A stretch of DNA of 64,000 bases, taken from positions 13,608-77,607 of IMG/VR virus record IMGVR_UViG_3300034523_000174. One strand, 5' to 3'. A program made the position numbers and the translations under genes. The stretch comes from a virus. Below the pieces are notes generated by a model, which searched no databases, had not been told where the DNA came from, and saw only the letters and a program-made list of their open reading frames with translations. Below, in pieces: positions 1,684-42,034 of this stretch; within the stretch, counting starts at the first letter, position 1; every line of letters starts with the position of its first letter.

Positions 1684-1724
1684 GCAAAGCCCCTCCCGGA
1701 AGGGCTAAAAACCGCCTGTACGCT
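1684..1724 (+). promoter_or_regulatory. Putative late promoter (GCAAAGC...TACGCT)
   Basis: Conserved motif with a -10-like hexamer starting 35 nt downstream; 72 nt before the portal ATG. Confidence 0.7.
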
Positions 1725-1755
1725 GACCGATAAATGGGACTAATGCGTACAGACA

Positions 1756-3348
1756 ATGGCCGACGAAAAGAAACCGAAAAAAAGCCTGATGGGGTCGCTC
1801 GCCGGCGCCACCAAGCTTTTGCTGGGCGAGGTGAGTACCGCGCCCGATATCCGGATGGAAGGGATCAGCACGTTTGACGCCGATTACGTCGGCATTGAAA
1901 TGCTGCTTGGGTCTAGCGAGCGCCCGGCCCGGTCACGTTCTGCGATCTATCAGAAGTGGCATTACATGATTCAGGACGGGCTGATCAGCACCATCCTGCG
2001 CTTGCATGTACAGATGGCGCTGGGCGGCCATGAAACAACCGGGGAAACGATCTTTATCGAAGCCAAGCCCGGTATCTCGGCGGCCGATCAGAAGGCTGTC
2101 GATGAGCTGCAATTTATCGCCAAAATTCTCAACAAGCACGCCCACGGCATTTGCTTCAACGCCTGCGCGTTCGGTGACGCCTACGCCCGTCTGTATACCG
2201 AGAAAGGCATAGGCCTGATCACCATCGACACGGAGTCGGTGTTTTCGCCGCTTGTGCAGGCCTTCGAAGAGATTGGCCATACCGTGGGCTACGTGGTCAG
2301 CATTGGGTCGAAGCTACAGAGCCGGTTCAACCATCTAAAAATGTGCCGTATGCGGATGCCGCGCATGGTGTACCTGCCTCAGATGCGCGCGGTAGAGAAC
2401 GCCCAAAAGATCAACCTGGAAGCCGACACCGCTGATCACCTGGTGCCATTGCCAGCGCTGGTGGGCGGCTCGTTCCTGGAAGCGGCCGAAACGGACTACG
2501 ACAACCTGCTGTCTTCCCTGCGCGGGATGATCGGCCAGCGTATTACCGGATCGATTGACGAAACGATGATCGGCGCCAACCTCTCCGACATGACGGCGCA
2601 GCAACAGAAGCTGTTCATGGATTCGCTCGAAAAGATGCTCAAGAGCATGAAGGATCGGGCCGAGGAAGCGGTGCGCACAGGCACCTACGCTACTTCGCGA
2701 AACTTCCATGTCATGCCGACCTTCAACGAAAAGCAGCTGACGCAAATCAGCTCGTTTCAGGGCGGCTCAAATTCCGGCGCCGGCGCCAACATCGAAGACG
2801 TGATGTTTTGCGCCCGCAAACTGGCGGGCACGCTGGGCATTGACCTGTCGATGGTGGGCTTTGCTGACCAAATGACCGGTGGCCTTGGCGAGGGTGGGTT
2901 TAACCGCACCAGCAGCCAGGCTGCTGAGCGCTCACGGATCATCCGTACTGCTTTCATGAGCATGGTCAATGACGTGATCGACCGCCACAAGCTGGCCAAA
3001 GACGGCAAGGTGTGGGCGGACGATGAGCGCCCGTATGCCGTGAATTTCTTCGGCTCCATCGCCGCGCTTGAGGCTGAGAAACAGGCCAGCCGTGAGCGAT
3101 CGATCAACGGCGGCGTGATGCTGCTCCAGGGTATGGACCTGATGCGCAACATGGGATTGCCCGTGGATGTGATGGAGCAGTTCATGTCCGGATCTATGGA
3201 AATCGACGCCGACAAAGCCAAGGTTTATGCCAAGGGGATCAAGGATGCAAAACCGCCTGCGCCAGACATGGGCGGCGGGAACTTCGGTGGTGATGACAAC
3301 GAGCCGCCATTACTACCGAACGGCACTACAGATAATGGGGAAGAGTGA
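1756..3348 (+). CDS. Portal protein (P1 Prt-like)
   Basis: 530 aa, FGDAY motif, acidic Gly/Pro tail, directly upstream of the protease. Confidence 0.8.
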   Translation: MADEKKPKKSLMGSLAGATKLLLGEVSTAPDIRMEGISTFDADYVGIEMLLGSSERPARSRSAIYQKWHYMIQDGLISTILRLHVQMALGGHETTGETIFIEAKPGISAADQKAVDELQFIAKILNKHAHGICFNACAFGDAYARLYTEKGIGLITIDTESVFSPLVQAFEEIGHTVGYVVSIGSKLQSRFNHLKMCRMRMPRMVYLPQMRAVENAQKINLEADTADHLVPLPALVGGSFLEAAETDYDNLLSSLRGMIGQRITGSIDETMIGANLSDMTAQQQKLFMDSLEKMLKSMKDRAEEAVRTGTYATSRNFHVMPTFNEKQLTQISSFQGGSNSGAGANIEDVMFCARKLAGTLGIDLSMVGFADQMTGGLGEGGFNRTSSQAAERSRIIRTAFMSMVNDVIDRHKLAKDGKVWADDERPYAVNFFGSIAALEAEKQASRERSINGGVMLLQGMDLMRNMGLPVDVMEQFMSGSMEIDADKAKVYAKGIKDAKPPAPDMGGGNFGGDDNEPPLLPNGTTDNGEE

Positions 3349-3350
3349 TC

Positions 3351-4250
3351 ATGCGTAAGCGCACAGGGGTTATCAGTTACAACGTGAACGAGCGCGGGCG
3401 CCAATTCGCCGGCCAAGATCGCAAAGTCAACATTCCGGCGCTGATGGCGCTGATCAACGGCCCGATGGTGCAGGAGTTAGTGCGCAAAGGGGACGTGTAT
3501 GGGTACTTCGGCCATACGTTCCGCGAGAAATACGGCCTCAACGTGCCGGAAACAGTCATTGAGGGCGGAAAAGTGGTGGTGCTGGAGCCCACTGTGCGCA
3601 CGGTGATGATCAAGTGTCTGCCAGACGGCACCATCCAGCATAACCAAGAGTTTTTGAACAACGCGCCGGGGCGTATCGCTGGCCGCCTGTACGACAGCAA
3701 GGCCTATGGGTTCAGTTCGGTGTTCCATGCCCCCGAAGAAGCTGGCCTACGCACGCCCAAGACATTCCACGGTATGGATTTTGTCAGAACCCCGAACTAC
3801 GACACGAACCGGGGCTATGACGCCATGCTGGATAGTGTCGAGGCGGGCGCCATTGAGTCGCTGGGCTTCGCGGGCGAGTGCGCTGCCATGATGGACAGCG
3901 TAGAGGCGATGATGGCGCAGAGCGATGCACAGGCGGCAGAAATCAGTGAAGCCTACCTTCACCAGTGCAAAGTAAACGATGACCTGGTGGACCTCAACGC
4001 TCGCCTGATGCTGCGCCTACAGAAGGCTGGCACGGGCGCCATGCTCGACAGCGCCGATCCGACCACACTTCAGCGCGGTTCGGAGTTCCTGCCAAGCCGT
4101 GCGGCGGCCATGCTCGACAGCGCCGACCGCTTCATGAAAGCCGACCTGCCAGACCTTGAGCCGTCGCCCGAGGAAGTCGCCACCGAGAAGAAAGCCGGCG
4201 TCCTGGCCAAAAGCGTGGATCTGGTGCGTAAAGTGATCGGGGGGGTGTAA
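3351..4250 (+). CDS. Prohead (head-processing) protease, P1 Pro-like
   Basis: YGYFGH, YGFSS and GMDFV..PNY motifs of T4 gp21/herpes-like proteases; four AM(L/M)DS repeats in the C-terminal half. Confidence 0.8.
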   Translation: MRKRTGVISYNVNERGRQFAGQDRKVNIPALMALINGPMVQELVRKGDVYGYFGHTFREKYGLNVPETVIEGGKVVVLEPTVRTVMIKCLPDGTIQHNQEFLNNAPGRIAGRLYDSKAYGFSSVFHAPEEAGLRTPKTFHGMDFVRTPNYDTNRGYDAMLDSVEAGAIESLGFAGECAAMMDSVEAMMAQSDAQAAEISEAYLHQCKVNDDLVDLNARLMLRLQKAGTGAMLDSADPTTLQRGSEFLPSRAAAMLDSADRFMKADLPDLEPSPEEVATEKKAGVLAKSVDLVRKVIGGV

Positions 4251-6872
4251 GTGAGCATTCTCCCCTCCGATGGTGATGGCTTTCTAACGGGCGCGGTGTC
4301 CGAGAATCTGGAAAAGATCGCCCGCGAGATTGCGGTACTCAAGGCGATCCGCTCGGACACGCACGCCACCTTGGCACAACTGCGCTCTATAGCTAATTCG
4401 CTGGGAAGCGTCCGTGTAGAAGGGCCGGCCCCCAGCAATAGCGCGCCACCAGCTTCCCCCGTCATACCTCCTGACAGGCCATCGCGCCGCAATTCGCCAG
4501 CACCTGGCGCGCCACCTAGTGCACCGTCCGACGGCTCGCCAAGACCTGCCCCGCCCCCACGGCCTGTACCGCCACCACAGCCGCCCGACCGGGATGCCTC
4601 GCCAACGCCCGCTCCTGACCGTCACCGGGATGAGAGCGGCCGGTGGCGCCGCCGTAACGCTGGCCCCGATGGTGCACCAAGCCCTGACGCCTCGGGAAGC
4701 GACAAGGAAAGCCGTGCGGCTGGCGCAATGGGGGATGCCGCCGACACCTTGAAGGGTGTGGCCAGTGCCGTGGGTTCTGGTACAGACGGCATCGATCCAA
4801 CCGTTCAGGCCGTCAAAGAGATAGGGGGCATAGTTGCCCCTGTGGTTGGCGTTCTTAAGCCTATGGGGCGCCTGTTCGGTATTGGTAAGCGCCCCGAGCA
4901 AAAGAATCAGCGCGAAAACGTTGCCTGGTACCGCCGTATATGGGCGGCCGTAAAAACCCCGGCCGGCGGTGGCGGTGGCGGCCTAATGGGCCTGGTCCTG
5001 TCGGGCCTTTTGTCGATGCTGGGTATGCTGCTGGGGCCGATCAAGGCCCTGAGCAAGCTGATGGGGCTTGCCAGTCTACTCAAGGGCGCAGGCTCGATGC
5101 TTGGGGGTGGACGTGGCTCCGGTGGCGGCAGGGGCGCACGAGGTGGCAGAGGTGGGGGTGGGCCTAACCCCCCTGATACGAATCGACGCGGCGCGCGTAA
5201 TGGTCCAACCCCGCCCGATGCCAATGGCCGCCGGAATCAACCGCGCCCACCTAGGCCACCTGGTGGCAGTGGCGGCTTAGGAGGGATGGTTAAAGGGGTA
5301 TTGAAAAAACTTCCATTCATTGGCGCCTTACTCGGCGGCGGCATGATCGCCAATGCGTTTATGAAGGATGAAGATCCGAACGCAACCCCCGATGAGAAGG
5401 CCGCTGCCAAGGCAGACAAGTGGGGCACCGTAGGCGGCGTGGCTGGTGGTGTTGTTGGCGCGGCCGTTGGCTCCTTACTCGGCCCGGTTGGCACCATCGT
5501 CGGCGGTATCGTAGGTGACTACATTGGCTCTGCCATGGGCGAATGGCTGTCTACCGTCGATTTTGCCGCTGTAGCCACAACGGTCAGTGATACGTTTTCG
5601 GCGCTGGCGTCAGGCGCCATGGACCTGGCCAGCTCAGCTTTCGATTCGGTTAAAGGTGCCTGGAACGGCCTGGTAGAGAGTGGCGCTAAAGTCTTCACAG
5701 GCATGAGCGACTGGGCCAAAGACACCTGGAAGGCCGCCACAGATGCCGTGATGGGCATTAAGGACACCGTGGCCGACAAGGTGCAGACGGCCAAGGACTA
5801 TGTGGGCGATAAAGCCACGTCTGTGAAGGATGCCGGCCAGAACCTGCTGAATAAGGCCACCGGTGGCAAGTACACAGGCGGCTCCAACGCCGCGAAAGAC
5901 GAAATGATCAAGGCCATGGATGCGGGCGGTATCACTGATCCCAAATCTAAAGCCATGCTCATGGCCAACGTCGACCACGAATCGGGTGGGTTCAAGAAGA
6001 ACGAGGAAAACCTTAACTACAGCGCCAAACGCTTGCAGGAGGTTTTCCCCAAATACTACAAGACCCCCGAGGACGCCCGAGCCGACGCCAACAACCCGGA
6101 AGCCATCGCCAACAAGGTCTATGGCGGGCGCATGGGTAATACCGAGGCTGGTGACGGCTACAAATACCGTGGGCGCGGTAACTTGCAGCTGACGGGCAAG
6201 GCTCAGTATGCGGAAATGGGCAAGAAGCTGGGCATAGACCTGGTGAACAATCCAGACCTGGCCATGGATCCTAAATACTCGGCGCAGATCGCGGTGCAGC
6301 ACTGGAAGAGTTCCGGCGCCGACAAGGCCGCCCAAGCCGGCGACCAGACGCGCGCCCGTAAACTCACCAACGGCGGCACCAATGGCCTGGAGGATGTAAA
6401 CAGCAAATATGACGCCTATCTGGCCCAAGCTAAGGCCGGCGACCTGACGCCAACCCGTCGCGCCGATGAAGGCAAGGTGCAAGCGCCAGCCGCCGCCAGC
6501 ACCGCCATTGCCAGTACCATGGCCACGGTAAAGGGAGCGCCCACTGGCGCTAAACCGATCACCCCCGGCATGCCTGGCGCCAACACGGTGGGCATTATGG
6601 CCGCGCCGGCGACGGCTCCAACCCTGGCGACCAAAGGGGTTACGTCAATCAGTCCTGTGAGCGCCGGCACACTGGTCGCTCCTCGTTACACACCGCCCGC
6701 GCCGGAAGCCGCTCAAATGAAGATTCCGGCCACGCCAGCCGTAGAAAAGCCAATGATGATGGCCAACAAACCAGCCGCCCCCACCACTATCCAAATGTCG
6801 GTACCGCTCAGTCAGAACCTGGAAGATCGCCAGATTGCCCACGTCGCTGGCGGAGGGGTTGGTATGGGTTAA
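4251..6872 (+). CDS. Tape measure protein (Sit-like) with GH19 lysozyme/chitinase domain
   Basis: Gly/Ala-rich and W/F-periodic repeats; HESGGF..EENLNYS...YRGRGNLQLTG...NPDL...NGGTNGL is a GH19 signature. Confidence 0.8.
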   Translation: MSILPSDGDGFLTGAVSENLEKIAREIAVLKAIRSDTHATLAQLRSIANSLGSVRVEGPAPSNSAPPASPVIPPDRPSRRNSPAPGAPPSAPSDGSPRPAPPPRPVPPPQPPDRDASPTPAPDRHRDESGRWRRRNAGPDGAPSPDASGSDKESRAAGAMGDAADTLKGVASAVGSGTDGIDPTVQAVKEIGGIVAPVVGVLKPMGRLFGIGKRPEQKNQRENVAWYRRIWAAVKTPAGGGGGGLMGLVLSGLLSMLGMLLGPIKALSKLMGLASLLKGAGSMLGGGRGSGGGRGARGGRGGGGPNPPDTNRRGARNGPTPPDANGRRNQPRPPRPPGGSGGLGGMVKGVLKKLPFIGALLGGGMIANAFMKDEDPNATPDEKAAAKADKWGTVGGVAGGVVGAAVGSLLGPVGTIVGGIVGDYIGSAMGEWLSTVDFAAVATTVSDTFSALASGAMDLASSAFDSVKGAWNGLVESGAKVFTGMSDWAKDTWKAATDAVMGIKDTVADKVQTAKDYVGDKATSVKDAGQNLLNKATGGKYTGGSNAAKDEMIKAMDAGGITDPKSKAMLMANVDHESGGFKKNEENLNYSAKRLQEVFPKYYKTPEDARADANNPEAIANKVYGGRMGNTEAGDGYKYRGRGNLQLTGKAQYAEMGKKLGIDLVNNPDLAMDPKYSAQIAVQHWKSSGADKAAQAGDQTRARKLTNGGTNGLEDVNSKYDAYLAQAKAGDLTPTRRADEGKVQAPAAASTAIASTMATVKGAPTGAKPITPGMPGANTVGIMAAPATAPTLATKGVTSISPVSAGTLVAPRYTPPAPEAAQMKIPATPAVEKPMMMANKPAAPTTIQMSVPLSQNLEDRQIAHVAGGGVGMG

Positions 6873-6889: not shown

Positions 6890-6930
6890 GCAAACCGCCC
6901 CGCAATAGGGCGGTTTTTGTTTGCCATGAT
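6890..6930 (+). promoter_or_regulatory. Late promoter overlapping an intrinsic terminator hairpin
   Basis: GCAAACCGCCC-cgcaata-GGGCGGTTTTT, then CATGAT at +35. Confidence 0.7.
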
Positions 6931-8654: not shown

Positions 8655-9475
8655 TGGAACTGATCCCGCTAAAGCGTAGCGCCGAATACGACGACCTTGA
8701 GTCTGAATTCAAGGCGCTGTTTCTGAGCCTGTACCGCCAATACGTCAGCGATGACCTTAGCGAGCTGATGCTGTACGGGATGCCGCACCTAAGCTCGGAT
8801 GAGGTCATTAGCATGCATCTGGGGCGTGACGGCCTGGCCATGCTGCGCGACACCACGAACGAGCGTATTCGCTACCTGTTCCACGCCTGGCGCTACAACA
8901 ACCCCCAGCGCGGAACAGCGTTTCTGGACACCTACCTGCGCACGCTGTTTGGGCCTACGTTCCAGATAAATCAATTGTGGTGCCCGGTAGATGGCGTCTA
9001 TCCCCATGATGCGGTATCGGAGGCCGAAGTTATCGCGCTGGGCGAGAGCACGGACGATTACTTTCTAACGAGCCGCCTACAGGTCGATATCGACACGGAA
9101 ATTGTCCCGCTGCGCATTGCCGAGGCGGCTAAGACGGCGGTTTCCGCCAAGTTCGTGCTGGACGTGCGTCTGGCCAAGACGATCAGCCTTGTTTACAAGG
9201 TGGCGATGCTGGGGTGGGGCATCCAGGTCGTGCGAGCGGCGGGCAAGGCCCTGTATCACCAGCGTGAGATTATCGCCTCGGTTACGGTTGGTGGCGGCAT
9301 GTACGCGGTCGGCAGCGGTGACGCCATCAAGCTGGTACATACGGGTGGTAGCCAGGTGGTCCGCGCACCAGAAGTGCGCAGCACGGTGCGTACAGGCCCT
9401 GCCAGTCGTCCAGGCGCGGCGACGATGATTTTCAGCTCAATTCCCCGCGTAGACATGCAAACCTACCCCAAATAG
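8654..9475 (+). CDS. Baseplate wedge protein (P1 gp16-like)
   Basis: NPQRGTAFLDTYLRTLFG motif; lies between the wedge and fibre genes. Confidence 0.65.
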   Translation: MELIPLKRSAEYDDLESEFKALFLSLYRQYVSDDLSELMLYGMPHLSSDEVISMHLGRDGLAMLRDTTNERIRYLFHAWRYNNPQRGTAFLDTYLRTLFGPTFQINQLWCPVDGVYPHDAVSEAEVIALGESTDDYFLTSRLQVDIDTEIVPLRIAEAAKTAVSAKFVLDVRLAKTISLVYKVAMLGWGIQVVRAAGKALYHQREIIASVTVGGGMYAVGSGDAIKLVHTGGSQVVRAPEVRSTVRTGPASRPGAATMIFSSIPRVDMQTYPK

Positions 9476-9497
9476 GGCGTTTTTCCGACTGTAACCT
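9457..9497 (+). promoter_or_regulatory. Putative late promoter of the tail fibre gene
   Basis: GCAAACC at 9457 and TAACCT at 9492, partly inside the upstream gene end. Confidence 0.6.
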
Positions 9498-12627: not shown

Positions 12628-12668
12628 GCAAACCGCCGCGCAATGTGGCGGTTTTTGTGGGGCACCAT
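12628..12668 (+). promoter_or_regulatory. Late promoter overlapping a terminator hairpin
   Basis: GCAAACCGCCGC-gcaat-GTGGCGGTTTTT, then CACCAT at +35. Confidence 0.7.
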
Positions 12669-16127: not shown

Positions 16128-16166
16128 GATCGCTTCCGTAGCTACTTGTGGTGAAGAGAGTTAATG

Positions 16167-16480
16167 GGTGGGTGAATTACAAAACGTTACAGGTGAAAAC
16201 CCTATAAGCCTCGACAGGAGCGCTCTACAAGGCGAAAAAAGTGGTCAACCGATCGGTTTTTTGTAATTCACCCACCGAAACACGCCTTTTTTGTAATTCA
16301 CCCACCAAAGTATGTAATTCACCCACCTTTCTTTGTAATTCACCCACCGATTGTTGTAATTCACCCACCCATCCACAGGGTTGTTAGGGTGGTCTAGACC
16401 AAGTGGGGCGCGGTCTGTAGCGCTTATCCACAATGGCCAAAACATAGATATAAAACCTTTTTAAAACTCTTAATCTTATA
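16167..16480. repeat. Iteron origin of replication (oriV)
   Basis: TGTAATTCACCCACC at 16262, 16292, 16313, 16334 and 16355 (21-bp period for the last four), inverted copy at 16167-16181, DnaA box TTATCCACA at 16424-16432, AT-rich tract 16439-16480. Confidence 0.9.
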
Positions 16481-16914: not shown

Positions 16915-16955
16915 GCAAAGCGCGCCGGGGCTACGTCCATTTATCCCCTCACAAT
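16915..16955 (+). promoter_or_regulatory. Putative late promoter
   Basis: GCAAAGC at 16915, CACAAT at 16950. Confidence 0.65.
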
Positions 16956-26496: not shown

Positions 26497-26538
26497 TGAA
26501 CCTGTAAACAATCCGCACACAAGAAAGGAGCCCCCGCC

Positions 26539-26778: not shown

Positions 26779-26849
26779 TTCATACAAAGAAACCCCGGCC
26801 GGGCCAGAGTGGAGCGGCCAACGCAAACCAAACCGCCAGAGATAAACGT

Positions 26850-27323: not shown

Positions 27324-27370
27324 ATGACGCAAAGGCGCCAAAGCGGCAAAGCGTTTTAGTGTCTTAGAGT
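27323..27370 (+). repeat. Octamer array overlapping a variant late promoter
   Basis: AATGACGC AAAGGCGC CAAAGCGG CAAAGCGT TTTAGTGT CTTAGAGT; GCAAAGG at 27329. Confidence 0.6.
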
Positions 27371-27416
27371 TAGCCCTACGGCCATTCGGGCCGACCGGAC
27401 ATTAAGGACGTAGGGC

Positions 27417-28073
27417 ATGAGCGAAGTATTAGCGGTGCGTGGTAGTGATCAGGTAATGCGCGAGCTGGCGCAGACGAAAGCATCCGTGATCGAAGCTAAG
27501 CGGGTGCTGATCGTCGGCGCTGGCGCTCTCCCTAAGCTGCTGGGGGAGTTGAACGATAGCCTGGCCGAGCTGGGCTATGTGTGCGTGCCGCTTGAGCCCG
27601 CGCAAGGCCTGTACAAGACATTTGCGGATCTGCTGGCGTGTCCTTCGCTGGCGCCGCTGCTGGCGGTTGAGGCCGACACCCCGGCGCTGGGGATCGATCC
27701 ACCGGCGGATTACGCGCCCCAGCTGATCAATAATGTCACCGCGCGCCCTGAGCCCCTTCCTGTGGATCCTGAGCACGCCGATCCCGAGCCGGAGCCTACT
27801 GTGGTCGACGTGTCGGGCCTGGATATGGGCAAGCCAATCAACTGGAAGTTGGGGGATGTGTTTATCTCCAATCCCCGTATCACGCTACCGCACAAGAGCC
27901 GCAAGTGGATTCTCGACTCGCTGGATATTTCCGATCTGGAAAACCTGAGCGGGATCGACGTTCAAATCAGAAGCCCGAACACGACGACTACCGAGCTGCT
28001 GACGCTCAAGCAATTTATGGCTCAGTACGTGTTCCATAAGCGCCCTGCCGCAGAGCAAAGCGCCGCCGAGTAA
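27417..28073 (+). CDS. Hypothetical protein, possible Dar accessory factor
   Basis: 218 aa directly upstream of the LPD1 and MTase genes. Confidence 0.6.
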   Translation: MSEVLAVRGSDQVMRELAQTKASVIEAKRVLIVGAGALPKLLGELNDSLAELGYVCVPLEPAQGLYKTFADLLACPSLAPLLAVEADTPALGIDPPADYAPQLINNVTARPEPLPVDPEHADPEPEPTVVDVSGLDMGKPINWKLGDVFISNPRITLPHKSRKWILDSLDISDLENLSGIDVQIRSPNTTTTELLTLKQFMAQYVFHKRPAAEQSAAE

Positions 28074-28095
28074 CCCCGTTTCGACGCCTCAAAAT
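28055..28095 (+). promoter_or_regulatory. Putative late promoter
   Basis: GCAAAGC at 28055, CAAAAT at 28090. Confidence 0.6.
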
Positions 28096-28129
28096 ATGGG
28101 CTTGCATACCACTATGTAGGCCCATATCC

Positions 28130-32999: not shown

Positions 33000-33021
33000 G
33001 TTCGAAACGCGCGAAAACCAT

Positions 33022-33062
33022 GCAAACCCCCGCCAAAAACGGGGGTTTTTGGCCCTTACCAT
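33022..33062 (+). promoter_or_regulatory. Late promoter overlapping a terminator hairpin
   Basis: GCAAACCCCCG-ccaaaaa-CGGGGGTTTTT, then TACCAT at +35. Confidence 0.7.
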
Positions 33063-33115
33063 CATTTCTGAAACTAATCGGGCGCAGCCCACCATTATCA
33101 GAAATGAGGTAACAC

Positions 33116-34801
33116 ATGCCTACGAACATTTACGCGCCCGGATCCGGCTTGGGTGAGGTTGCTGCCAAGGTTGGTGCATTGGTCGGTGCTGCGCGCGGCA
33201 ACGACAACATGCTCGACAGTCTCAGCGCTCCAGCCATGGATGCCGTGAAACTCGCCGTAGCAGACGCCAAAAACCTGCTGCCTGAGCGTATGGCTCGCCT
33301 GCTGGACAAGATCGAGGGCGAGGGCAGTCGCGCGTTGGCCGTTACCAGTATGCTGGACGGTATCGCCAGCTTTCAACGCAAGTGTGGTTTCTCCCCGTCC
33401 GCCGACATGATCGACGCGGTAATCTCCCAGGCGGAAAACCTGGCAGACGGCAAAGCTACCGACGTGCTGCCGCACGGAACCACCCTGGACAGCATCAGTA
33501 CCAACAATGCCTCGGCCACCCTGTCGCACCAGCCTAACCGCATCGCGGTAGCTATCACTGGCGGCCTGAGCGAGGCGATCCCGTTCGGCGCCTACCTGCC
33601 ATCCGACCTCAGTTCTAACGAGTCGAAGCTGGCCATCATCACCTCGATTGCCGGTTCGAACTTTGGCGCGTACAAGTCGGGCGAAATCATCGACGGCACT
33701 TCCGGCGGCCGCGAATACACCCGCTCCGAACGTGTTGTGGACGTTACTGTTGACGTAGCACGTACCGGTGGCACTTTCGCCATCAAAACCCAGTCGGATG
33801 GTGGCGGCGCTACCGTTCCATTGCTGCGTGGTCGTACCTCGATCACCGCCAACGGCTTCCCGGTTGCTTTCGAGCAAACCAACAACTCCGGTACAGACAG
33901 CTCGCTGATTTCTGGCCAGTTCAAGCAGGGCGCACAGTCTTACGTCATTACCGGTAGCGTCAACGTCGCCACCGGCGCCGGCACCCTGACCTTTGCCCCA
34001 GCCCTGGCCGCTGATATTGATATCGAAGCGCAAGGCTTCATCGACTTCGAAAGCAAGCCTGAGCTGGCGCCAAATATCGGCACCATCGCACAGAGCTACA
34101 GCCTGTACTGTGCACCGTCTCGCCTGATCATGCAGGCCACCCCGGATTCGCGCAGCCAGTCCCAGTCGGAATTGGGCGCCGACCGCCTGACCATCGCTGT
34201 GCAGGCCGCTCGCACCCAGCTGGCGAACGAGCGTTACATCGCCGCGCTGCATAAGGTCCGCAAGCTGGCCAAAAACACCAGTCGCGAATACGACTTTAAC
34301 GCTGCTGAGCAACTGACGCTGAAAACTCGTGCGGACGCCCTGCGCGACCTGGGCTCGTTCGTGTCGGCTGTTGACCAGGACGTGGCCAACCAGACCATGG
34401 AATACGGCCTGAGCTTCATGTACGTCGGTTCTAAGGGCATGTCCCAGTTCCTGACCATGGACGCCTCGGACTTCACCCCGTCCGGCCTCCAGTCGAAGCC
34501 AGGTATCTGGCGCATCGGCCGCTACAAGAACAAGTACGACGTGTACTACACCCCGTATGTCGTCCAGGAAACCGACACCGATATCGAAATCCTGTGCATC
34601 GGTCGCTCCCCGCAAGTGGCGCGTAACCCGATTGTCTTCTCGGATGCGGTATCCCCGACCCTGATCCCGCTGGCGGTGAACTCGGATCTGAAAACCGGCG
34701 CGGCGCTGTTCTCCCGCCAGCTGACCGAAGTGAACCCGCACAAGCCGTCGTCGTTGGGCTGCGCGCTGCTCACCATCAAAAACGTGTACGCACTGGGCTA
34801 A
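33116..34801 (+). CDS. Major capsid protein (P1 gp23-like)
   Basis: 561 aa, high-expression codon use, N-terminal propeptide with MLDS/MLDG/TLDS, lies upstream of the sheath gene. Confidence 0.8.
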   Translation: MPTNIYAPGSGLGEVAAKVGALVGAARGNDNMLDSLSAPAMDAVKLAVADAKNLLPERMARLLDKIEGEGSRALAVTSMLDGIASFQRKCGFSPSADMIDAVISQAENLADGKATDVLPHGTTLDSISTNNASATLSHQPNRIAVAITGGLSEAIPFGAYLPSDLSSNESKLAIITSIAGSNFGAYKSGEIIDGTSGGREYTRSERVVDVTVDVARTGGTFAIKTQSDGGGATVPLLRGRTSITANGFPVAFEQTNNSGTDSSLISGQFKQGAQSYVITGSVNVATGAGTLTFAPALAADIDIEAQGFIDFESKPELAPNIGTIAQSYSLYCAPSRLIMQATPDSRSQSQSELGADRLTIAVQAARTQLANERYIAALHKVRKLAKNTSREYDFNAAEQLTLKTRADALRDLGSFVSAVDQDVANQTMEYGLSFMYVGSKGMSQFLTMDASDFTPSGLQSKPGIWRIGRYKNKYDVYYTPYVVQETDTDIEILCIGRSPQVARNPIVFSDAVSPTLIPLAVNSDLKTGAALFSRQLTEVNPHKPSSLGCALLTIKNVYALG

Positions 34802-34813
34802 CAGGGGGCTGTC

Positions 34814-35431
34814 ATGGCTGCGAAGACTGGCGTTAAAGCGGCGGTGAAAACCGCTGCTGCTAAAACCGCAGCGGCCCCCAAGACCCCGGAAACCGTGGAG
34901 AAATCCACGGCCCTTCCGGGCGTTGGTGCGCCTGCTGATAACACCGTCCCACCAGGTGGCGAAAGCGAGACGGCCAAGGCCGAGCGCGAAGCTGCGGAAA
35001 AGCTCATGGACGAACTGCGCGAAGAGGCCGAGCGCCTGAATCGGGAGTGGGACGACAGCGCCGCGCGCTTGCTGGCCGAGCAAATGGGCCTGCTGGAAGA
35101 CGAAGCCCGCGCGGAGGATTTGGAGCGCGCCGAGCGCCTGAAAACCACGCAAACCACCCCCGAAGAGGGCGCCGCCGGTGCCGTAACTTTGATCGGGTGG
35201 GCGCTTCCAGAAATCAGCGAGTTTCCGGCCACTGTCACCCTCGAAAACCACACTCGCAACCGCGTCCCGGTGGCCGGCGCGAACATCGGCCTGGCCCCAT
35301 ATGAGCGGGTTGAAGTCACGGTTTCACAGGAGCAGTTCGCCAAGCTCGCCAAAGCGCTGACCAGCAGTGCGCGGGCGCACAAGTGGGACAACCTCAAAGG
35401 CTTGCAGGTGAAATATGACCGTAAAAATTGA
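34814..35431 (+). CDS. Hypothetical virion protein (Lys/Ala-rich N-terminus)
   Basis: In the capsid operon; C-terminus resembles the next gene. Confidence 0.65.
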   Translation: MAAKTGVKAAVKTAAAKTAAAPKTPETVEKSTALPGVGAPADNTVPPGGESETAKAEREAAEKLMDELREEAERLNREWDDSAARLLAEQMGLLEDEARAEDLERAERLKTTQTTPEEGAAGAVTLIGWALPEISEFPATVTLENHTRNRVPVAGANIGLAPYERVEVTVSQEQFAKLAKALTSSARAHKWDNLKGLQVKYDRKN

Positions 35432-35741
35432 TCGACAGGCTGGTAAAGCCCCGCGCCCACTCGTTGAGGCGTTGGTGGCAGGCCAGCAGTATCCGTTCCT
35501 GGCGTCGTTGACGCACATGAACAAAAAACCGGTGGTGGTCCCGTCCTCGGGCATCAATACCCCAATTGCACCAGGTGAGCCGGTTCAAGTGAAGGTTAAG
35601 AGCTTCGACCAGGCTTGGCTGTTGGTCACGGACCTGGCTGAGCTGGCGCACCGCGCTGGCAATGACGCCGCCGATTTTGCGGTGTTGGCAGCCCCCAAGG
35701 TCGCCAAGGCCAAGGCCGTCGAAGCCCAGGAGGCTAAGTAA
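35415..35741 (+). CDS. Hypothetical virion protein
   Basis: Translationally coupled to the sheath gene. Confidence 0.65.
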   Translation: MTVKIDRQAGKAPRPLVEALVAGQQYPFLASLTHMNKKPVVVPSSGINTPIAPGEPVQVKVKSFDQAWLLVTDLAELAHRAGNDAADFAVLAAPKVAKAKAVEAQEAK

Positions 35742-37387
35742 TGACTATCCCTTTTTCCCGCTCCATTGATAAGCGTTCGGGCGTACAGCTCAACTACATC
35801 AATGACATGTCGGAAATGCCGAGCACCAGCACCGTGGCGCACAACATGGCCATTACTGGTCGTTTTGCCCGTGGTCGCACGGACAAGGTGTTTGCGGTTT
35901 CTCGCGACAAGATCAAGCGCGTGCTGGGTTCTGCTCAGTCGTTGTCGGTAAGTGCACTGGGTGAGCCCTATGTGCATATCTATGAAGCGCTCAAGAAGGG
36001 CACCGTTCAGGCCATCGTTTCCCGCCTGGTCAGCGCCGACGCCACCAACAAGCTGATGGTTGCCACGGCCGCTGTTGCCCCCGCAGAAGGTCAGCCGGCG
36101 CCACCGGTCTGGACGCTGGTGGACGAAGCCACGGGCGCCACCGGTACCTACCTGATCGCCATCAAGCATTTGGAATGCTTCTCCGACGGCGTTAAGGCCG
36201 AGATTCACGCCGACGCCGCAACGGACGCCGAGGGCGAGCCTGTCGCGTCCAAAATCATCACCCTGCAACTGCGCGACGTGGCTACCAACGCCATCGTCCT
36301 CGGGCCTTACAAGGGCTCGCTTGATCCGGCGGCGCTCGATGAGTTCGGCCAGAGCAATTACATTGCCGATATCGTGGCGCAGTACACCGACCTGCTTCAG
36401 GTCGTCGACGTACATGCAGACGCAGAGGTACCAGTCGCGTGCGTGTTTTACGGCAAGAAGGACAATAAGGATGTCTATGCATCGGCAGCCCTGAATTACT
36501 TCACCGAAGGCTCTACGCTGTACACCACCGAGGATCTGGACGCCGCGATTGACCGTATCAAGCGTTCTAAGCCGACTTTTACTTACATCGGCGGTGGCGG
36601 TACCGAAAGCCTGGCGCTGATTTCTCGCCTGTTGGACCTGGGCAAGCAGATCAACAAGCAAGTGGTTTGGGACATTGCTGGTCGCTTCACTCCAGAAGCC
36701 GCCGCGACCTTCTACGCTTCGGTTGGCGGTGCGACTGACAGCCTGTACAGCCAGTGCTATTGGGCGCCGATCACGGCCACCAACCCGGTGGTAGGCGGTA
36801 AGGCCTATATGGGCACCTCGGGCATGAACATCGGCCTGCGCTGCGCTCGCAACGCACAGACCAACGCCAAGGGTATCGCCCCGCGCAACGTTGTGATTGC
36901 TGGTAGTGACTTCGCCGTCGACCGTACCAGCATGGTGCAAACCTATGAGCCGTCGGATGACGAACTGGAAGTGCTTGCCGCCAGCCGGATCAACCCGGTT
37001 ATCTACAAGGACTACGCCAGCGGCGGCAAATACGCCTGGCTCGATTCCTTGACCGGCGCGCAAACCGAAGGCGCTACCAAGCTGATCGCAGTTGTTGAAA
37101 TGGCAACTTACGTCGACGACACCATTGCCTCGGCGGCTCAGGAAGCTTTGCAGAAGCCTATGGCCAAGGCCATCGAGAAAACCACGAAGTTCATCGCCAC
37201 CTTCCTGGAATCGCTGCAATCGGCTAACTGGCTGCAACCAAGCGAAGCCCTCGACGGTGCCTGCTACCAGGCCACCATCCAGGCGAACGCCAACCAGCCT
37301 TTCGAGAAAATGAACATCGATACGGCCATCTGCTACGACGGTACGGCTCGCATCATCGTTCAGCAGCAGTCTATCGTCCGCACTTAA
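35741..37387 (+). CDS. Tail sheath protein (P1 gp22-like)
   Basis: 548 aa; GRFARGRTDK N-terminus, LAASRINPV...DSLT. Confidence 0.8.
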   Translation: MTIPFSRSIDKRSGVQLNYINDMSEMPSTSTVAHNMAITGRFARGRTDKVFAVSRDKIKRVLGSAQSLSVSALGEPYVHIYEALKKGTVQAIVSRLVSADATNKLMVATAAVAPAEGQPAPPVWTLVDEATGATGTYLIAIKHLECFSDGVKAEIHADAATDAEGEPVASKIITLQLRDVATNAIVLGPYKGSLDPAALDEFGQSNYIADIVAQYTDLLQVVDVHADAEVPVACVFYGKKDNKDVYASAALNYFTEGSTLYTTEDLDAAIDRIKRSKPTFTYIGGGGTESLALISRLLDLGKQINKQVVWDIAGRFTPEAAATFYASVGGATDSLYSQCYWAPITATNPVVGGKAYMGTSGMNIGLRCARNAQTNAKGIAPRNVVIAGSDFAVDRTSMVQTYEPSDDELEVLAASRINPVIYKDYASGGKYAWLDSLTGAQTEGATKLIAVVEMATYVDDTIASAAQEALQKPMAKAIEKTTKFIATFLESLQSANWLQPSEALDGACYQATIQANANQPFEKMNIDTAICYDGTARIIVQQQSIVRT

Positions 37388-37397
37388 GGGGTATCAC

Positions 37398-38126
37398 ATG
37401 GAAAAGTTACTGCAAAACGTACTCGCCACTGGCGCCGCGATCAGCAAGGCCTACGCGAGCCCGGCACCGGAATCTCAGGCGCCAAACCTGGCGCTGTCGG
37501 GCCTCTCCGCTGCCATGCTCGACGCGCTCAATCCGGACAATGCGCCCGCTGCGCTGTTCACTGACGAAATGCGCCAAGAAGCGGTAAGCATCGTCCAGGA
37601 GTGGGCTGAGTCGGAGCTGGAAACCGGCGAAGGCTATGGTGATCGTCTTTACGCACTGATCGTTGGCAGCGCCACCGATGGCGATGAAGACATGAGCGAT
37701 GACGAAGCGGAATACGCCGCCTCCTTGGCTGAGCTGGTGGGCGACTACCTGGAAGGCAAGGGCATCGACGCCGGCGACGTGGAATCGCTGCTGAGCGATG
37801 ATCCGTCGTTTGACAATGACGTGGCCGCACGCATTCACGATGCGCTGCTGGACAAGCTCCCACAGGGCGAGGACGCCATGCTCGATGACGCTGACAAGTT
37901 CGTCAGCGGTGACGACGACGAAATGCTCGATGCGGTCTACAAAAAGGTCGTGGCTATTCGTGGCGGCAAGAAGGTTCGCATCAAGAAGCGCATCAGTGGC
38001 CGCGTGCGGCTGACAGCAGCGCAGAAAGGTGCGGTGCGCAAAATGCAGCGCAAAGCCTTCTCGGGTGCGGCGAAAATGAAGCGCGCCAAGTCCATGCGCT
38101 TGCGCCACCGCCTGCTCGGTAAGTAA
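37398..38126 (+). CDS. Prohead core/scaffold-like protein (acidic body, very basic C-terminus)
   Basis: Three MLD motifs; K/R-rich tail after EMLDA. Confidence 0.6.
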   Translation: MEKLLQNVLATGAAISKAYASPAPESQAPNLALSGLSAAMLDALNPDNAPAALFTDEMRQEAVSIVQEWAESELETGEGYGDRLYALIVGSATDGDEDMSDDEAEYAASLAELVGDYLEGKGIDAGDVESLLSDDPSFDNDVAARIHDALLDKLPQGEDAMLDDADKFVSGDDDEMLDAVYKKVVAIRGGKKVRIKKRISGRVRLTAAQKGAVRKMQRKAFSGAAKMKRAKSMRLRHRLLGK

Positions 38127-38129
38127 AAC

Positions 38130-39311
38130 ATGGCTGACTTTAGCGTAGACAGCCTGGGTAAAACCGTCTCTTCCAGCATCAAGGGTGTTACCGGGACGGT
38201 GGCCGGGAGTACGTCGAACAAGCTGCTAGGGTCAGCCACCAAATTCCTGGGGAACGGCGCCGCTGGCGCCGCTTCCGGCATCCTTACGGCCGGGGTGTCA
38301 CAGATTGACGGCCTGGTGGGCGGTACCGCCAACCGTAAGGCGATAGAGGGCGCAGTAAGCACCGTCACCGGCACGGTGTCGGATCTGTGGTCAGGCAAAA
38401 CGACGATTGGCCAGGTATACGACGACGCCTCAAGCAAAGTCATGGGCTTGGTCGATGGCGTCAAGTCGGGCGACCTTGAGGGGACTGTCGGCAACATTAT
38501 CGGCGGTACCAGCTTGGCCATACCGGGCTTAACGTCGCTCAGCTCTGACCTGGGTGGCGACTGGGGCAGTCTTTCGCCCCTTTTCTTGGCCCGTATATTC
38601 GTGTGTGACGCCAAGGGCGTGGCTGACATTCAGGAGTTTGCTGGGGTGTATGGGGCGCTCAAAGAGGGCTCGCTTGAAATCCAGCAAAACTGGCAATCCC
38701 CGTTTGAGAACACCGGCCCGGAAACTAAGGCGCCAGCGCTGGCCGGCATGCTGCAATCGGGTTCGCTGGTGCCGGTCCTTAATGCGCTGCAAGCCATTTC
38801 ACCGTTCAAAGAAGGTGCGATATCCGACACGCTCAATGCCGGCTCTGACAAGCTCAAGAGCATCATGCGCGACCTTGAGGGGCGCACCGGGATAACCAAG
38901 CTCAACTCCCGCCAAGTTTTCTCGGGCATGCCACCGGTAAAGATCAACCTCACGCTGCACTTTCGGGCGATGAGCGATCCGTTGAAAGAGGTGGAGGCGC
39001 CGTTAACGCGATTGCTTGAGTGGATTTTCCCGCAAGAGCTGGCGGCCGACGGGATCCTTTCGGAGGTACTGCAAACCACTCAGGACGTGGATTCATTCAT
39101 CAAGGCGCTGTTTCCGTCCAAGGCACCCAAACTACTGGGATTCACCTACGCGGGGCGGACCTTCTCCCCCATGGTGATCGAGAGCGTCAATTTTCCCTTG
39201 GATTCACCGAAGAATTCACAGGGCTATTACATCGACCTGCCAGTACAGGTGTCCATGGCCACGCTTACCGCGCTCGACCGGCCGGATATCAAGCGTTTCT
39301 TTGGTCGATAA
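38130..39311 (+). CDS. Baseplate tail-tube cap-like protein (PmgG/gp48-like)
   Basis: NWQSPFE...NSRQVFSGMPP...EVEAP; precedes the tube gene. Confidence 0.55.
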   Translation: MADFSVDSLGKTVSSSIKGVTGTVAGSTSNKLLGSATKFLGNGAAGAASGILTAGVSQIDGLVGGTANRKAIEGAVSTVTGTVSDLWSGKTTIGQVYDDASSKVMGLVDGVKSGDLEGTVGNIIGGTSLAIPGLTSLSSDLGGDWGSLSPLFLARIFVCDAKGVADIQEFAGVYGALKEGSLEIQQNWQSPFENTGPETKAPALAGMLQSGSLVPVLNALQAISPFKEGAISDTLNAGSDKLKSIMRDLEGRTGITKLNSRQVFSGMPPVKINLTLHFRAMSDPLKEVEAPLTRLLEWIFPQELAADGILSEVLQTTQDVDSFIKALFPSKAPKLLGFTYAGRTFSPMVIESVNFPLDSPKNSQGYYIDLPVQVSMATLTALDRPDIKRFFGR

Positions 39312-39326
39312 CAGGCCGCAAACCCT

Positions 39327-39367
39327 GCAAACCCCGCCCCGAAGCGGGGTTTTTTACGTGTGACGAT
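39327..39367 (+). promoter_or_regulatory. Late promoter overlapping a terminator hairpin
   Basis: GCAAACCCCGC-cccgaa-GCGGGGTTTTTT, then GACGAT at +35. Confidence 0.7.
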
Positions 39368-39401
39368 TGCCCGGAGTGTTCCATTCTCCAGAGGGTGATT
39401 T

Positions 39402-39875
39402 ATGACCGTTTCCAGTTTGGCGGTATTGAGCCGCACGTTTCAAAACACCAACGATATCGGGGCCAAGGCTGTCCAGGCGGACGCCACCATGGTGATCGAA
39501 GGTTTCGAAGACATGATGTTGCTGTGCAAGCAATTCCCATGGGGCGTGGCGACCTCGGGCGGGGTGGTTGAATACTTCGGCCCGCTGGGTCAGAAGATGG
39601 GTCAGCCGGGGCAAGTCAAGACCATGCAGGAAGGCCCGATTCAGATTTACGAAACCCGCAAAAACCACGCGGGCGAGTTCCTGAAAAACCTGATCGCCGC
39701 CGGTGGCGAATTCAACTGCACCGTCTACGCCGGCCGCCCGGATGATTACACCAAAAAAGAAGACTACAAAAAGTGCATGTTGGTGATGGACACCCCAGAT
39801 CGTGACTGGGAGAACGACATGCAGACGTTCGTGCTCGCCGGCACCATGACCTTCCACTGGTTCGGCAACCAGTAA
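39402..39875 (+). CDS. Tail tube protein (BplB-like)
   Basis: 157 aa beta-rich protein with its own late promoter. Confidence 0.6.
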   Translation: MTVSSLAVLSRTFQNTNDIGAKAVQADATMVIEGFEDMMLLCKQFPWGVATSGGVVEYFGPLGQKMGQPGQVKTMQEGPIQIYETRKNHAGEFLKNLIAAGGEFNCTVYAGRPDDYTKKEDYKKCMLVMDTPDRDWENDMQTFVLAGTMTFHWFGNQ

Positions 39876-39877
39876 TC

Positions 39878-40282
39878 ATGAAAATCAGCCAATTAGTTGA
39901 CCAGTACCTTGCTGAGCTACCGATTGGCTGTGTGCTGACGGAAGAGCAAATAGCCCGCCATCTGCGCGATGCAGTGCGCCAGTATTGCGGGTATGCCCGT
40001 CTGACCAGCGCTCAGTCACTAGACACTGTGCACAGCGACCTCTATACGCCCGAAGACGTGCCGGCGCCGGTAGACGTTGATCTGACGCACAGTGAGCTGG
40101 CGATCATCCGCCCCTTATGGCTGCTCTACATCGAGCACGAAAACGCCATGGCCCTGGAAGCCTCCAGAAGCCAGGGCGCGGATCCTTATGGCCGGTCTAC
40201 GCCCGAGGTCAAGCAATCAATCCTCGACTATGAGCGCAGCCTTCCACAACTGACATTTGTGTTTGAAGTGAGGTCGATTTAA
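39878..40282 (+). CDS. Head-tail adaptor-like protein (PmgC-like)
   Basis: AVRQYCGY...IIRPLW.LY.E.ENA; synteny pmgC-tub-pmgB. Confidence 0.5.
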   Translation: MKISQLVDQYLAELPIGCVLTEEQIARHLRDAVRQYCGYARLTSAQSLDTVHSDLYTPEDVPAPVDVDLTHSELAIIRPLWLLYIEHENAMALEASRSQGADPYGRSTPEVKQSILDYERSLPQLTFVFEVRSI

Positions 40283-40995
40283 TGGCCAACATCTTCGAGC
40301 GGCTGGCCTATCAAGGCGTGGAAAAGGCGGCGGGCAGCGTCCAAAAAGGGCTGCCTAACGCAGTCCTAAAATACACCAGCGCCGCCCGCAACCTGCTCGG
40401 CGGCAATTTGAGTGGCGCAGCCAACGGGGTTCTGGATAACGTCTTTGGTCGTACCAGCATGTTTTCCGCCGGCGGCAACGTCATTTTGGCGGGGCAGTCC
40501 TGGAACAGCATTCTGGAGAGTTTCGAAGAGGCGTCGAGCGTTCTTCGTGAGCGCACGAACCTGTGGCATGTCGCTGTCGATCCGGTGGGCAAAATCAGCG
40601 CGCCGCGCATCAACCTGCTTTCCACCGAAGTCTCCTATAACAGCGTCCAGCTGGGCTACGAGCCGGTAAAGATCGGCTCAGGGTTTACGCAAGCCCCCAC
40701 TGGCGCCGATCCGGTAGAGCTGCGAATCGTCTGCTACGACGTGGATGGCGAGATAAAAGCGTGGTTCGACCAGCTTAAGGCTACCGCCACGCCTCGGGAT
40801 GGCTCCTTTGCCGTGCCATCGGACTACGCCAACACCATCACCGTCACCCACGGCTCAATCGAAGAGAGCCGCGGCTACTCCGCAAAGTGGGTAATGGTCC
40901 CCGTGTCCTGCGAGGTCAGCCTGTCACGCAGCACTGACGAGTTCACCGCGCTCAATCTCACATTCACGCAGCACGATTCCTTTGGTGCCCTATGA
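40282..40995 (+). CDS. Tail tube initiator-like protein (Tub-like)
   Basis: Tube-like fold features; synteny. Confidence 0.5.
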   Translation: MANIFERLAYQGVEKAAGSVQKGLPNAVLKYTSAARNLLGGNLSGAANGVLDNVFGRTSMFSAGGNVILAGQSWNSILESFEEASSVLRERTNLWHVAVDPVGKISAPRINLLSTEVSYNSVQLGYEPVKIGSGFTQAPTGADPVELRIVCYDVDGEIKAWFDQLKATATPRDGSFAVPSDYANTITVTHGSIEESRGYSAKWVMVPVSCEVSLSRSTDEFTALNLTFTQHDSFGAL

Positions 40996-41762
40996 AGTAC
41001 ATCAACCCGATCAACACTCGCCGTATTTCCGTGGAAATGAGCGAACTGCTCATTGAGGACGTGGAAAAGCTGTGTGAGATACCCGCGATTTATGAGCAGC
41101 GCACAGTGAGCGAGCTGCTACGTCGAATCTGCAAGCCGATAGATCGCCCTGGTGCGGTAGCGGATCCGCGCTTTTGGTCAGTTAACGAGCGCATTTTTGT
41201 GGTGGCCAGCTACATGGCTGCTACCCGCGATGATGGCCCGGACTTCCCTGTGGGCGAGAAAGGTAGCGGAGCCCACTTTAGCGACTACCTGCTGGCCAAC
41301 ACGGACTATGCCAGTGATATCCCGTTCAGCTTTGAAGGTGAGGCGCTGCTATTCAGTCCGTTGCTGGGCTACCAGGCTGAAATTATCGAGGCGCTGATTG
41401 CTGGCGGCACCTACAAGCCCACTGATTTCAGTTGGTGGTGTGGCGCCATGGCTGCGTGTGTACGCGGGGCAAACGATGATCCGTTGGAGTACACCGACGA
41501 CGCCAGCTATGAAACGGCCTTGGTGGGGCGTATCGCGGCTATTCGCCAAATGCCAGAGGCCAAGTTTGTCGGGCTATTCCATGCCTATCTGGACGCCACT
41601 CAGATGGGTGCGCACCTGGTGCATGCGATTACCAGTTCCCATGGCGTAATTGCCGCCCCTGTCTCCGAGCCGAAAGAAGGAGGGCCAGAGTTAGCACCTG
41701 CCCGATTTCCTGCCCATACCTGTATCAGCTTCGGGGCGCGTCGAGCTATGGGATTCGTATAA
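40992..41762 (+). CDS. Tail assembly chaperone (PmgB-like)
   Basis: DPRFWSVNER motif; ends ...PARF...; overlaps the next frame. Confidence 0.55.
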   Translation: MKYINPINTRRISVEMSELLIEDVEKLCEIPAIYEQRTVSELLRRICKPIDRPGAVADPRFWSVNERIFVVASYMAATRDDGPDFPVGEKGSGAHFSDYLLANTDYASDIPFSFEGEALLFSPLLGYQAEIIEALIAGGTYKPTDFSWWCGAMAACVRGANDDPLEYTDDASYETALVGRIAAIRQMPEAKFVGLFHAYLDATQMGAHLVHAITSSHGVIAAPVSEPKEGGPELAPARFPAHTCISFGARRAMGFV

Positions 41763-41988
41763 CGCGGTACGTGCAGAGCTCGCGCTGTACTTCGGCCAAG
41801 ACCTGGTGCAGTGCGGAAAGCTGACCGATACCCGCGTGCGAAAGCTGTTCGACAGTAAGCCTTTCAGCAACTGGAAGACTGGCCGCGAGAACGAGAACAA
41901 AGTCGTCAAGGCTGAGCTTGAGCGCCTGGACGCCATCATCAAGTCACTGGGCAACGTGGCGCAGATCATCGCCAAAAGAGGCGTCTGA
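41707..41988 (+). CDS. Downstream chaperone frame, probably reached by frameshift
   Basis: Open 41695-41988 with no ATG; reads ...WDSYNAVRAELALYFGQD...FDSKPFSNW. Confidence 0.5.
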   Translation, partial: FLPIPVSASGRVELWDSYNAVRAELALYFGQDLVQCGKLTDTRVRKLFDSKPFSNWKTGRENENKVVKAELERLDAIIKSLGNVAQIIAKRGV

Positions 41989-41993
41989 AACGC

Positions 41994-42034
41994 GCAAACC
42001 AGCCACGGAAGGCTGGCACAAAGCCATAGACAAT
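41994..42034 (+). promoter_or_regulatory. Putative late promoter of the lysis cassette
   Basis: GCAAACC at 41994, CCAGCC-N6-GGCTGG hairpin, GACAAT at 42029. Confidence 0.7.

Follow-up and report, generated by a model that had tools for sequence, protein, structure and literature searches.

Upstream of nearly all virion, cargo and lysis operons in a 64,000-nucleotide (nt) stretch of viral DNA, a seven-base box, GCAAASC (S, C or G), recurs and is followed, after a spacer of 28 nt (N28), by a hexamer of the −10 type. We consider it quite probable that these paired elements serve a distant P1-like Pseudomonas phage-plasmid as its late promoters and that they need a phage activator. The stretch, hereinafter the window, comprises bases 13608–77607 of the 77.6-kb virus record IMGVR_UViG_3300034523_000174 (G000), which has terminal repeats; the G+C content is 58.6%. 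Matches to PHROG and Pfam point to a distant P1-like myovirus that also encodes plasmid functions (RepA with iterons, ParA), with virion genes for the portal (PHROG 1497), a BplA-like baseplate protein, a P1-type sheath and a PmgG-like protein, and cargo genes for Hdf-like, DarA_N/ddrB-ParB and LPD1 proteins. The putative late promoters of the window are as follows.

1684–1724, plus strand: portal gene (start 1756; PHROG 1497); GCAAAGC, N28, TACGCT
6890–6930, plus strand: pmgA-like/baseplate operon (start 6959); terminator hairpin and T-run in the spacer
9457–9497, plus strand: tail-fibre gene (start 9529); hairpin and T-run in the spacer
12628–12668, plus strand: gene 12702; nested terminator
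16915–16955, plus strand: Hdf-like gene (start 16976/16988); hexamer CACAAT
20167–20207, plus strand: 1372-residue InPase/DarA_N/ddrB-ParB cargo gene (start 20232); hexamer TATCGT
27329–27370, plus strand: variant promoter, gene 27417; GCAAAGG, N29, TAGAGT
28055–28095, plus strand: LPD1 cargo gene (start 28130); box within the 3′ end of the preceding gene
33022–33062, plus strand: 561-residue conserved virion gene (start 33116), named capsid in the initial annotation and below; nested terminator, second box-like copy 9 bp upstream
35149–35189, plus strand: probably an internal promoter, within gene 34814–35431, upstream of the sheath operon
39327–39367, plus strand: tail/baseplate operon (start 39402); nested terminator, tandem box
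41994–42034, plus strand: lysis operon (start 42049)

Box and hexamer occur at a fixed distance

The ten GCAAASC boxes listed in the initial annotation all lie at the claimed coordinates, with the claimed hexamers beginning at +35 relative to the box. The composite pattern GCAAASC-N28-NANNNT has 14 matches in the window compared to 1.44 ± 1.26 (maximum 5) in 100 shuffled sequences; the comparison with shuffled sequence proposed at the outset thus came out clearly, 0 of the 100 shuffles reaching 14. At offset 35, 13 matches were observed on the plus strand and 1 on the minus strand; on the plus strand, the remaining offsets between 25 and 45 gave 0–3 each. The bare box is only mildly enriched (45 occurrences vs. 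31 expected in the window), so that the signal is the fixed geometry. No plus-strand match lies past position 42034, i.e. in the early/replication half, which bears out the expectation that early genes are not preceded by the element. Over the whole genome, there are 17 composite matches on the plus strand and 1 on the minus strand; beyond the ten boxes, the plus strand carries matches at 35149, 26823 and 32957 and four sites upstream of the window, in the first 13.6 kb (genome positions 1069, 4103, 8255 and 13317).

The variant noted at 27329, with an offset of 36, was confirmed (GCAAAGG-N29-TAGAGT), and its N29 spacer is kept in genomes G001–G005. Its spacer (27335–27365) consists of 8-bp tandem units (CAAAGCGG, TAAAGAGT and similar ones) that recur in relatives; an additional regulator may act at this promoter alone. 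The distance from box to start codon had been given as 65–76 nt (94 nt for the capsid gene); the range found is 55–94 nt, and the lysis promoter at 41994, at 55 nt, falls outside the narrower interval. As reported, no canonical −35 element is evident: zero canonical −35/−10 matches coincide with any site, and a scan for TTGACA-like hexamers 16–18 bp from the −10 gave no match at any site. At +47, a purine is common (A in 6 of the 12 sites). The Hdf-like, DarA-like (DarA_N/ddrB-ParB) and LPD1 genes each have such a promoter directly in front of them, in agreement with their proposed inclusion in the late regulon.

These features suggest a scheme whereby a hexamer of the host type, with no −35, would be read by the sigma-70 RNA polymerase. 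The 7-bp box, which starts 35 nt (rarely 36) before the hexamer, would occupy approximately −47 to −41, assuming a transcription start 7 nt downstream of the hexamer. A phage DNA-binding activator located there, one helical turn upstream of the position of sigma region 4, could then recruit the sigma-70 RNA polymerase in the fashion of a class II activator.

Conservation of the element in related genomes

No close DNA relative was found among named phages. By portal protein identity, the nearest named relatives are P. atacamensis NZ_CP070504 (70%) and P. putida AP015032 (67%); further Pseudomonas plasmids are those of P. fluorescens (CP048608, 56%) and P. psychrotolerans (CP018759, 44%), and outside Pseudomonas there are Burkholderia vietnamiensis pBVIE05 (44%), Xanthomonas phage Rb1 (45%) and P1 (27%). 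An examination of related genomes, also proposed initially, showed 13–17 late-strand matches in each of 5 IMG/VR genomes with 80–87% portal identity, compared to 0–2 matches on the other strand and 0–1 for a reversed control pattern. When orthologs of 13 operon starts were located across eight genomes, 11–12 of the 13 were found to keep the box G[C/G]AAA[C/G][C/T] and the same hexamer, which is operon-specific (TACGCT for the portal, TATCGT for the DarA_N gene, CAAAAT for the LPD1 gene, GACGAT for the tail operon), and the spacer is 28 nt long save for four cases of 29.

Column-wise pairwise identity is about 0.55–0.6 in the spacer, 0.98 at hexamer position 1 and 0.8–0.85 at positions 4–5. Positions 1, 4 and 5 are not fixed by the anchoring, whereas A2 and T6 occur in 91 of the 91 anchored sites by construction. 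The hexamer reads nAnnAT, with positions 1 and 5 conserved too. Judged from sequence, two blocks joined by a sequence-free, length-fixed spacer are the footprint of two DNA-recognised elements on one helix face. This pattern bears on the alternative in which the element is no promoter but works at the RNA level, in long read-through transcripts, to signal processing, antitermination or translation. Such a signal would fit the orientation of the sites, which run in the same direction as the genes, and the frequency of hairpins nearby; however, two short blocks with a length-fixed, sequence-free spacer are a signature of DNA recognition, the Hdf site has no upstream co-directional gene, and the capsid ribosome site would be sequestered in read-through RNA. 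We regard an RNA signal as highly improbable. At the Hdf promoter, divergent RepA and antitoxin genes precede, so that no co-directional transcript is expected and the promoter must stand alone; in 6 genomes, its box, N28 and CACAAT are kept, with unrelated spacers.

Several other sites are conserved individually. The portal promoter retains its box and TACGCT in an ortholog group of 8 genomes, and CAAAAT is invariant at the 28055 promoter in 8 genomes. At 20167, 7 of 8 genomes retain TATCGT; the boxes of W01 and W02 are GGAAAGC and GAAAACC, respectively. The internal site at 35149, which has no adjacent start codon, preserves box and hexamer in 8 of 8 genomes although the encoded protein is only about 40% identical. 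The box at 9457 sits within the final codons of the preceding gene, where relatives have GCAAAGT. The 12628 promoter is kept in G003 only, other relatives having a different upstream cassette with the motif ATGTATAGGGATAC.

The flanks of the box are also constrained, with a pyrimidine at position −1 in 84 of 91 sites and a purine at −2 in 75 of 91, yielding an asymmetric extended box, (C)RY-GCAAAS(C/T), in which G and C vary no more than the A's do. The capsid promoter (in 8 of 8 genomes) and the tail promoter (in 7 of 8) have a further box-like copy, [GCA]AAA[AC]C, that begins 8–9 bp upstream; such copies are rare elsewhere. The wider distribution was assessed by an unbiased word-by-offset count. 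The P. psychrotolerans plasmid has the box TCGGAAAG in the same geometry at 18–23 sites, the words TCGGAA, CGGAAA and GGAAAG peaking at offsets 37, 36 and 35, respectively (16–18 matches vs. about 1.3); Burkholderia pBVIE05 has TTAGGAAAA with N28/29, and the orthologous operon starts of Xanthomonas phage Rb1 have GGAAAA or GGAACA with N28. From these comparisons, the element in the window is the Pseudomonas version of a clade-wide layout.

A box with an A-rich core might also function with no phage activator, as a proximal UP-element-like site for the host alpha subunit or as a site for a host factor. The AAA core, at about −45 to −43, falls where, as generally known, proximal UP subsites lie (reportedly characterized by Estrem et al. 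in 1999), and the G-S-A-A-A core is common to all lineages. Nevertheless, two lineages in the same host genus have different, tightly conserved flanks (GCAAASC vs. TCGGAAAGY), the G and C are invariant like the A's, and late timing requires a phage-controlled factor; a host-only site is therefore considered unlikely.

Terminators in the spacer

The initial annotation described an A/T tract near +24 as a common feature. This did not hold: the tract is the T-run of an embedded terminator, which only about half of the sites have, and no element of the promoter. A GC hairpin with a T-run is present in the spacer at 6890 (terminator-like element at 6892–6916), 9457, 12628, 33022 and 39327 (5 of the 12 sites), and 1684, 16915, 20167, 28055 and 41994 have either a hairpin without a T-run or no hairpin. 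The spacer hairpin with T-run is the intrinsic terminator of the upstream operon, the AAA of the box pairing with the T-run, and the terminator stems covary among orthologs. The portal promoter has an A-run in the window and a T-run in G003. This interchange, together with the sites that lack a terminator, indicates that the terminator is optional cargo and that only spacer length matters.

The box might accordingly be suspected to be a mere A-tract flank of intrinsic terminators, with terminators of similar size next to ordinary promoters. At the 5 of 12 sites just named, the GC hairpin and T-run do follow directly after the box and its AAA pairs with TTT, but the box and the exact N28 are kept without hairpin or T-run at 16915, 28055, 13317 and in the Hdf orthologs, and the T-run and A-run swap at the portal promoter, which makes this explanation very improbable. 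In the activator scheme, the 28-nt spacer, devoid of sequence information, would serve as a parking space, occupied at about half of the sites by the terminator of the preceding operon, and the AAA of the box would double as the A-tract of that terminator.

Leader hairpins over the predicted start

Folding of the leaders with RNAalifold on ortholog alignments revealed hairpins in which the 5′ arm, located between +33 and +50 and ending at +46 to +50, spans the −10 as far as the predicted start, and the 3′ arm overlies the ribosome site or start codon. The clearest were these two.

28095–28126, plus strand: leader hairpin of the LPD1 gene; arms 28095–28105 (end of the −10/predicted start) and 28116–28126 (just before the ATG)
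33058–33111, plus strand: capsid leader hairpin; arms 33058–33071 (−10/predicted start) and 33098–33111 (GAGG ribosome site)

The LPD1-gene hairpin has a consensus energy of −17 kcal/mol with 3 covarying pairs, and the capsid hairpin −19 kcal/mol with 2. At the fibre promoter, the pairing 9498–9505/9529–9536 covaries; leader hairpins are weaker at the portal, Hdf and pmgA promoters. The terL leader lies outside the window; its predicted start is straddled by a terminator hairpin. The late-type promoter there (genome 8255–8320, before terL) has a hexamer overlapping the stop codon of the upstream gene, followed by the terminator hairpin and T-run, with the 5′ arm straddling the predicted start, an arrangement conserved in 8 genomes; accordingly, read-through RNA should terminate, whereas promoter-initiated RNA should not.

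When shuffled sequence (30 versions per genome) was substituted for the 14 nt between the hexamer and +46, the ribosome site was predicted to become more accessible, the value rising from 0.39 to 0.47 (Wilcoxon p = 7 × 10−5, 36 non-independent cases). For the LPD1 gene, the accessibility of the real Shine-Dalgarno sequence was below all 30 shuffles in 3 of 4 genomes and below 29 of 30 in the fourth; for the capsid, 0 of 30 shuffles reached the real value in 4 genomes; at the tail operon promoter 39327, the effect was moderate. Because the leader hairpins make sense only if the RNA starts between the two arms, they lend indirect support to a start near +47. The 5′ arm of a hairpin over the ribosome site would, at several promoters, consist of the 14 nt that separate the −10 from the predicted start, so that transcripts initiated at the promoter could be translated and read-through RNA would be silenced. 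Davis, Simons and Kleckner reportedly described, in 1985, a fold-back inhibition of read-through transposase mRNA in IS10. The present leaders resemble that case in that the 5′ arm lies upstream of the element's own start and the ribosome site is sequestered only in RNA entering from outside, but differ in that they are leaders of phage late operons and are deduced from covariation and folding.

Candidate activator

Hidden Markov model searches with 21 candidate proteins across 11 genomes identified three proteins present in all lineages with the layout: a 160-residue RNase H-like protein, a 60-residue late protein and a 250-residue XRE-type helix-turn-helix (HTH) protein, the last being the sole DNA-binding protein found in every such lineage. 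Its gene (G000 3500–4252, 10 kb before the window) is always located directly upstream of terS or terL, the position that lpa occupies in P1. In this subclade, it is preceded by ATGTATAGGGATAC, a motif also found before the single-stranded DNA-binding protein (SSB) and LytTR genes, which places the HTH gene in a non-late class. The recognition helix, T-x-[IV]-S-L-[YF]-E-N-G-[HR]-R, is constant in homologs of 40–87% identity, all of whose loci use GCAAAS boxes, and differs in the P. psychrotolerans, Burkholderia and Xanthomonas lineages, where the boxes differ. The predicted model consists of the HTH followed by a 60-residue helix, and Foldseek returned generic XRE HTH matches only. We tentatively put this protein forward as the likeliest activator, with the odds somewhat against the assignment.

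Among the other candidates, the 160-residue protein (18154–18636, minus strand; PHROG 4179), conserved in every lineage examined, was rejected, as its model has an RNase H-like/terminase-nuclease fold (predicted local distance difference test score 86). A LytTR-like 129-residue protein is an unlikely activator, being absent from lineages with other boxes. An 82-residue open reading frame (ORF; 25601–25849), with a weak match to Sigma70_r4_2 of the extracytoplasmic function (ECF) type, was also rejected as accessory; its surroundings are a variable block of small genes, and apart from this genome only the P. fluorescens plasmid has it. A 56-residue zinc-ribbon ORF (CxxC-X17-CxxC; genome 6887–7057), between terS and terL, occurs in GCAAASC lineages only; it is not of the Ogr/Delta family by Pfam and is unrelated to it by sequence.

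The Sigma70_r4_2 match raises the further possibility that a phage-encoded sigma factor or RNA polymerase reads these promoters, with the box as a −35-like element, given that, as is generally known, GGAAC/GGAAA-type boxes resemble ECF −35 elements. ECF-sigma promoters, though, combine a GGAAC-like −35 with a spacer of 16–17 bp, whereas the spacer here is 28 nt and not 16–18; a search for Sigma70_r2 found no match, and the accessory r4-like ORF is absent from W01, where the box is the same. A dedicated sigma factor or polymerase thus has very little to recommend it.

Several observations weigh against activator-dependent promoters read by the sigma-70 polymerase, or against the HTH protein as their activator. 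Some of the matches (26823, 32957 and genome 4103) are probably coding coincidences, including two in the window.

26823–26863, plus strand: doubtful match inside ORF 26721–27323; G000 only, overlapping a CGCCAGAGATAA repeat
32957–32997, plus strand: doubtful match in the final codons of gene 30351–32999, 65 nt before the 33022 promoter; its conservation is explicable by coding

The fold-back effect is clear at just 2–3 promoters. Four RNA-library runs, available as assembled contigs only, were compared with window 26001–46000 and yielded no usable ends: one contig bridges the 39327 site, and the 5′ limit of an X16 contig at 33056, which is 13 nt short of the predicted capsid start, is not interpretable. 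XRE HTH proteins usually bind palindromes as dimers, and the box is asymmetric. The agreement between helix and box may reflect shared ancestry only, and the HTH protein could instead be a prophage repressor.

Comparison with known late promoter systems

Phage P1 has about a dozen dispersed late promoters (PMC10695390). They number 11 in all (LPs, LPsit, LPdar, LPpro, LPpac and others) and are activated by Lpa together with host SspA, and those extracted from AF234172 have the form AAGTGACTT-N4-TAnnnT. The similarity to the present system is considerable: both belong to P1-like myoviruses maintained as plasmid-prophages, with dispersed late promoters in which a −10 and an activator box replace the −35; the promoters precede orthologous operons (portal, tail fibre, dar/hdf, baseplate); a regulator gene, here a candidate, adjoins the terminase genes; and the TAnnnT-type −10 before dispersed late operons has its counterpart in nAnnAT. 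The boxes differ, however, in that the 9-bp AAGTGACTT of P1 has its centre at about −22 and is separated from the −10 by 4 bp, whereas the 7-bp GCAAASC is 28 bp from the −10. P1-type late promoters were not found in this genome, where the −22 region of the window sites is variable spacer; no Lpa homolog was detected (best E value of 3.2 for P1 Lpa by tblastn against the whole genome), and hhalign of the HTH profile against Lpa gave a probability of 0.1%. The conserved box, hexamer and spacing, the strand specificity and the lack of both Lpa and a −22 box support the original proposal that this is an activator-dependent class distinct from that of P1 Lpa, and the Lpa system is not general among P1-like phages.

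In phage Mu, the middle and late promoters, activated by Mor and C, have only a −10, and their activator site has its centre near −43.5, a helical turn further upstream than a −35 would be. The location fits the present box, whose centre would be at about −44, but the dimers of Mor and C recognise sites with dyad symmetry, and the box of the window is asymmetric and occurs singly or in direct tandem; the Mor family (PF08765) had no match in six frames of the genome. Nor was there a PF04606 match for P2 Ogr/Delta, or a TGT-N12-ACA dyad near −55 in the conserved columns. Activator-dependent phage late promoters with only a −10 are a well-known kind of system; we found no description of a promoter type with this box and spacing in the literature searched. 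It is possible, though doubtful, that the element represents an undescribed late system across the whole clade (Pseudomonas, Burkholderia, Xanthomonas), with the XRE-type HTH protein as a non-homologous positional replacement of Lpa, an asymmetric G-S-AAA box at −44 and self-insulating cassettes.

The element would define a late regulon that includes injected anti-defence cargo genes, in widespread, unstudied phage-plasmids of soil, plant and wastewater Pseudomonadota, and the late operons of relatives could be annotated by it. The box, the spacing and the candidate activator form a simple, directly testable hypothesis, and the combination of a terminator in the spacer with a fold-back leader offers possible compact, insulated expression parts.

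Other repeated elements

The motif ATGTATAGGGATAC, often with TTTTGCGCCCGAA before it, is located upstream of the gene for the 250-residue HTH protein, the LytTR-like gene and the SSB operon and also after gene 48913–49404 (genome 3443–3456 and 12048–12061; window 48776–48789, minus strand, and 49397–49410). In relatives, it takes the place of the late box before the ortholog of gene 12702, and it is absent from W01, W02 and W05. It is a candidate early promoter or repressor operator class. The 12-mer CGCCAGAGATAA has five good copies in the window (26834; 47206, minus strand; 50838; 51992; 57969), 4 of them 5–11 nt before the start codon of an early/accessory gene and one about 31 nt before.

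Between the RepA gene (PF10134) and the antitoxin-like gene, window 16160–16370 contains 6 copies of GGGTGAATTACAA, which are probably iterons of the plasmid origin. In the P. psychrotolerans plasmid record CP018759.1, about 20 kb are repeated at both ends, with identical sites at 9693 and 103935 as one example, which suggests an assembled terminal redundancy.

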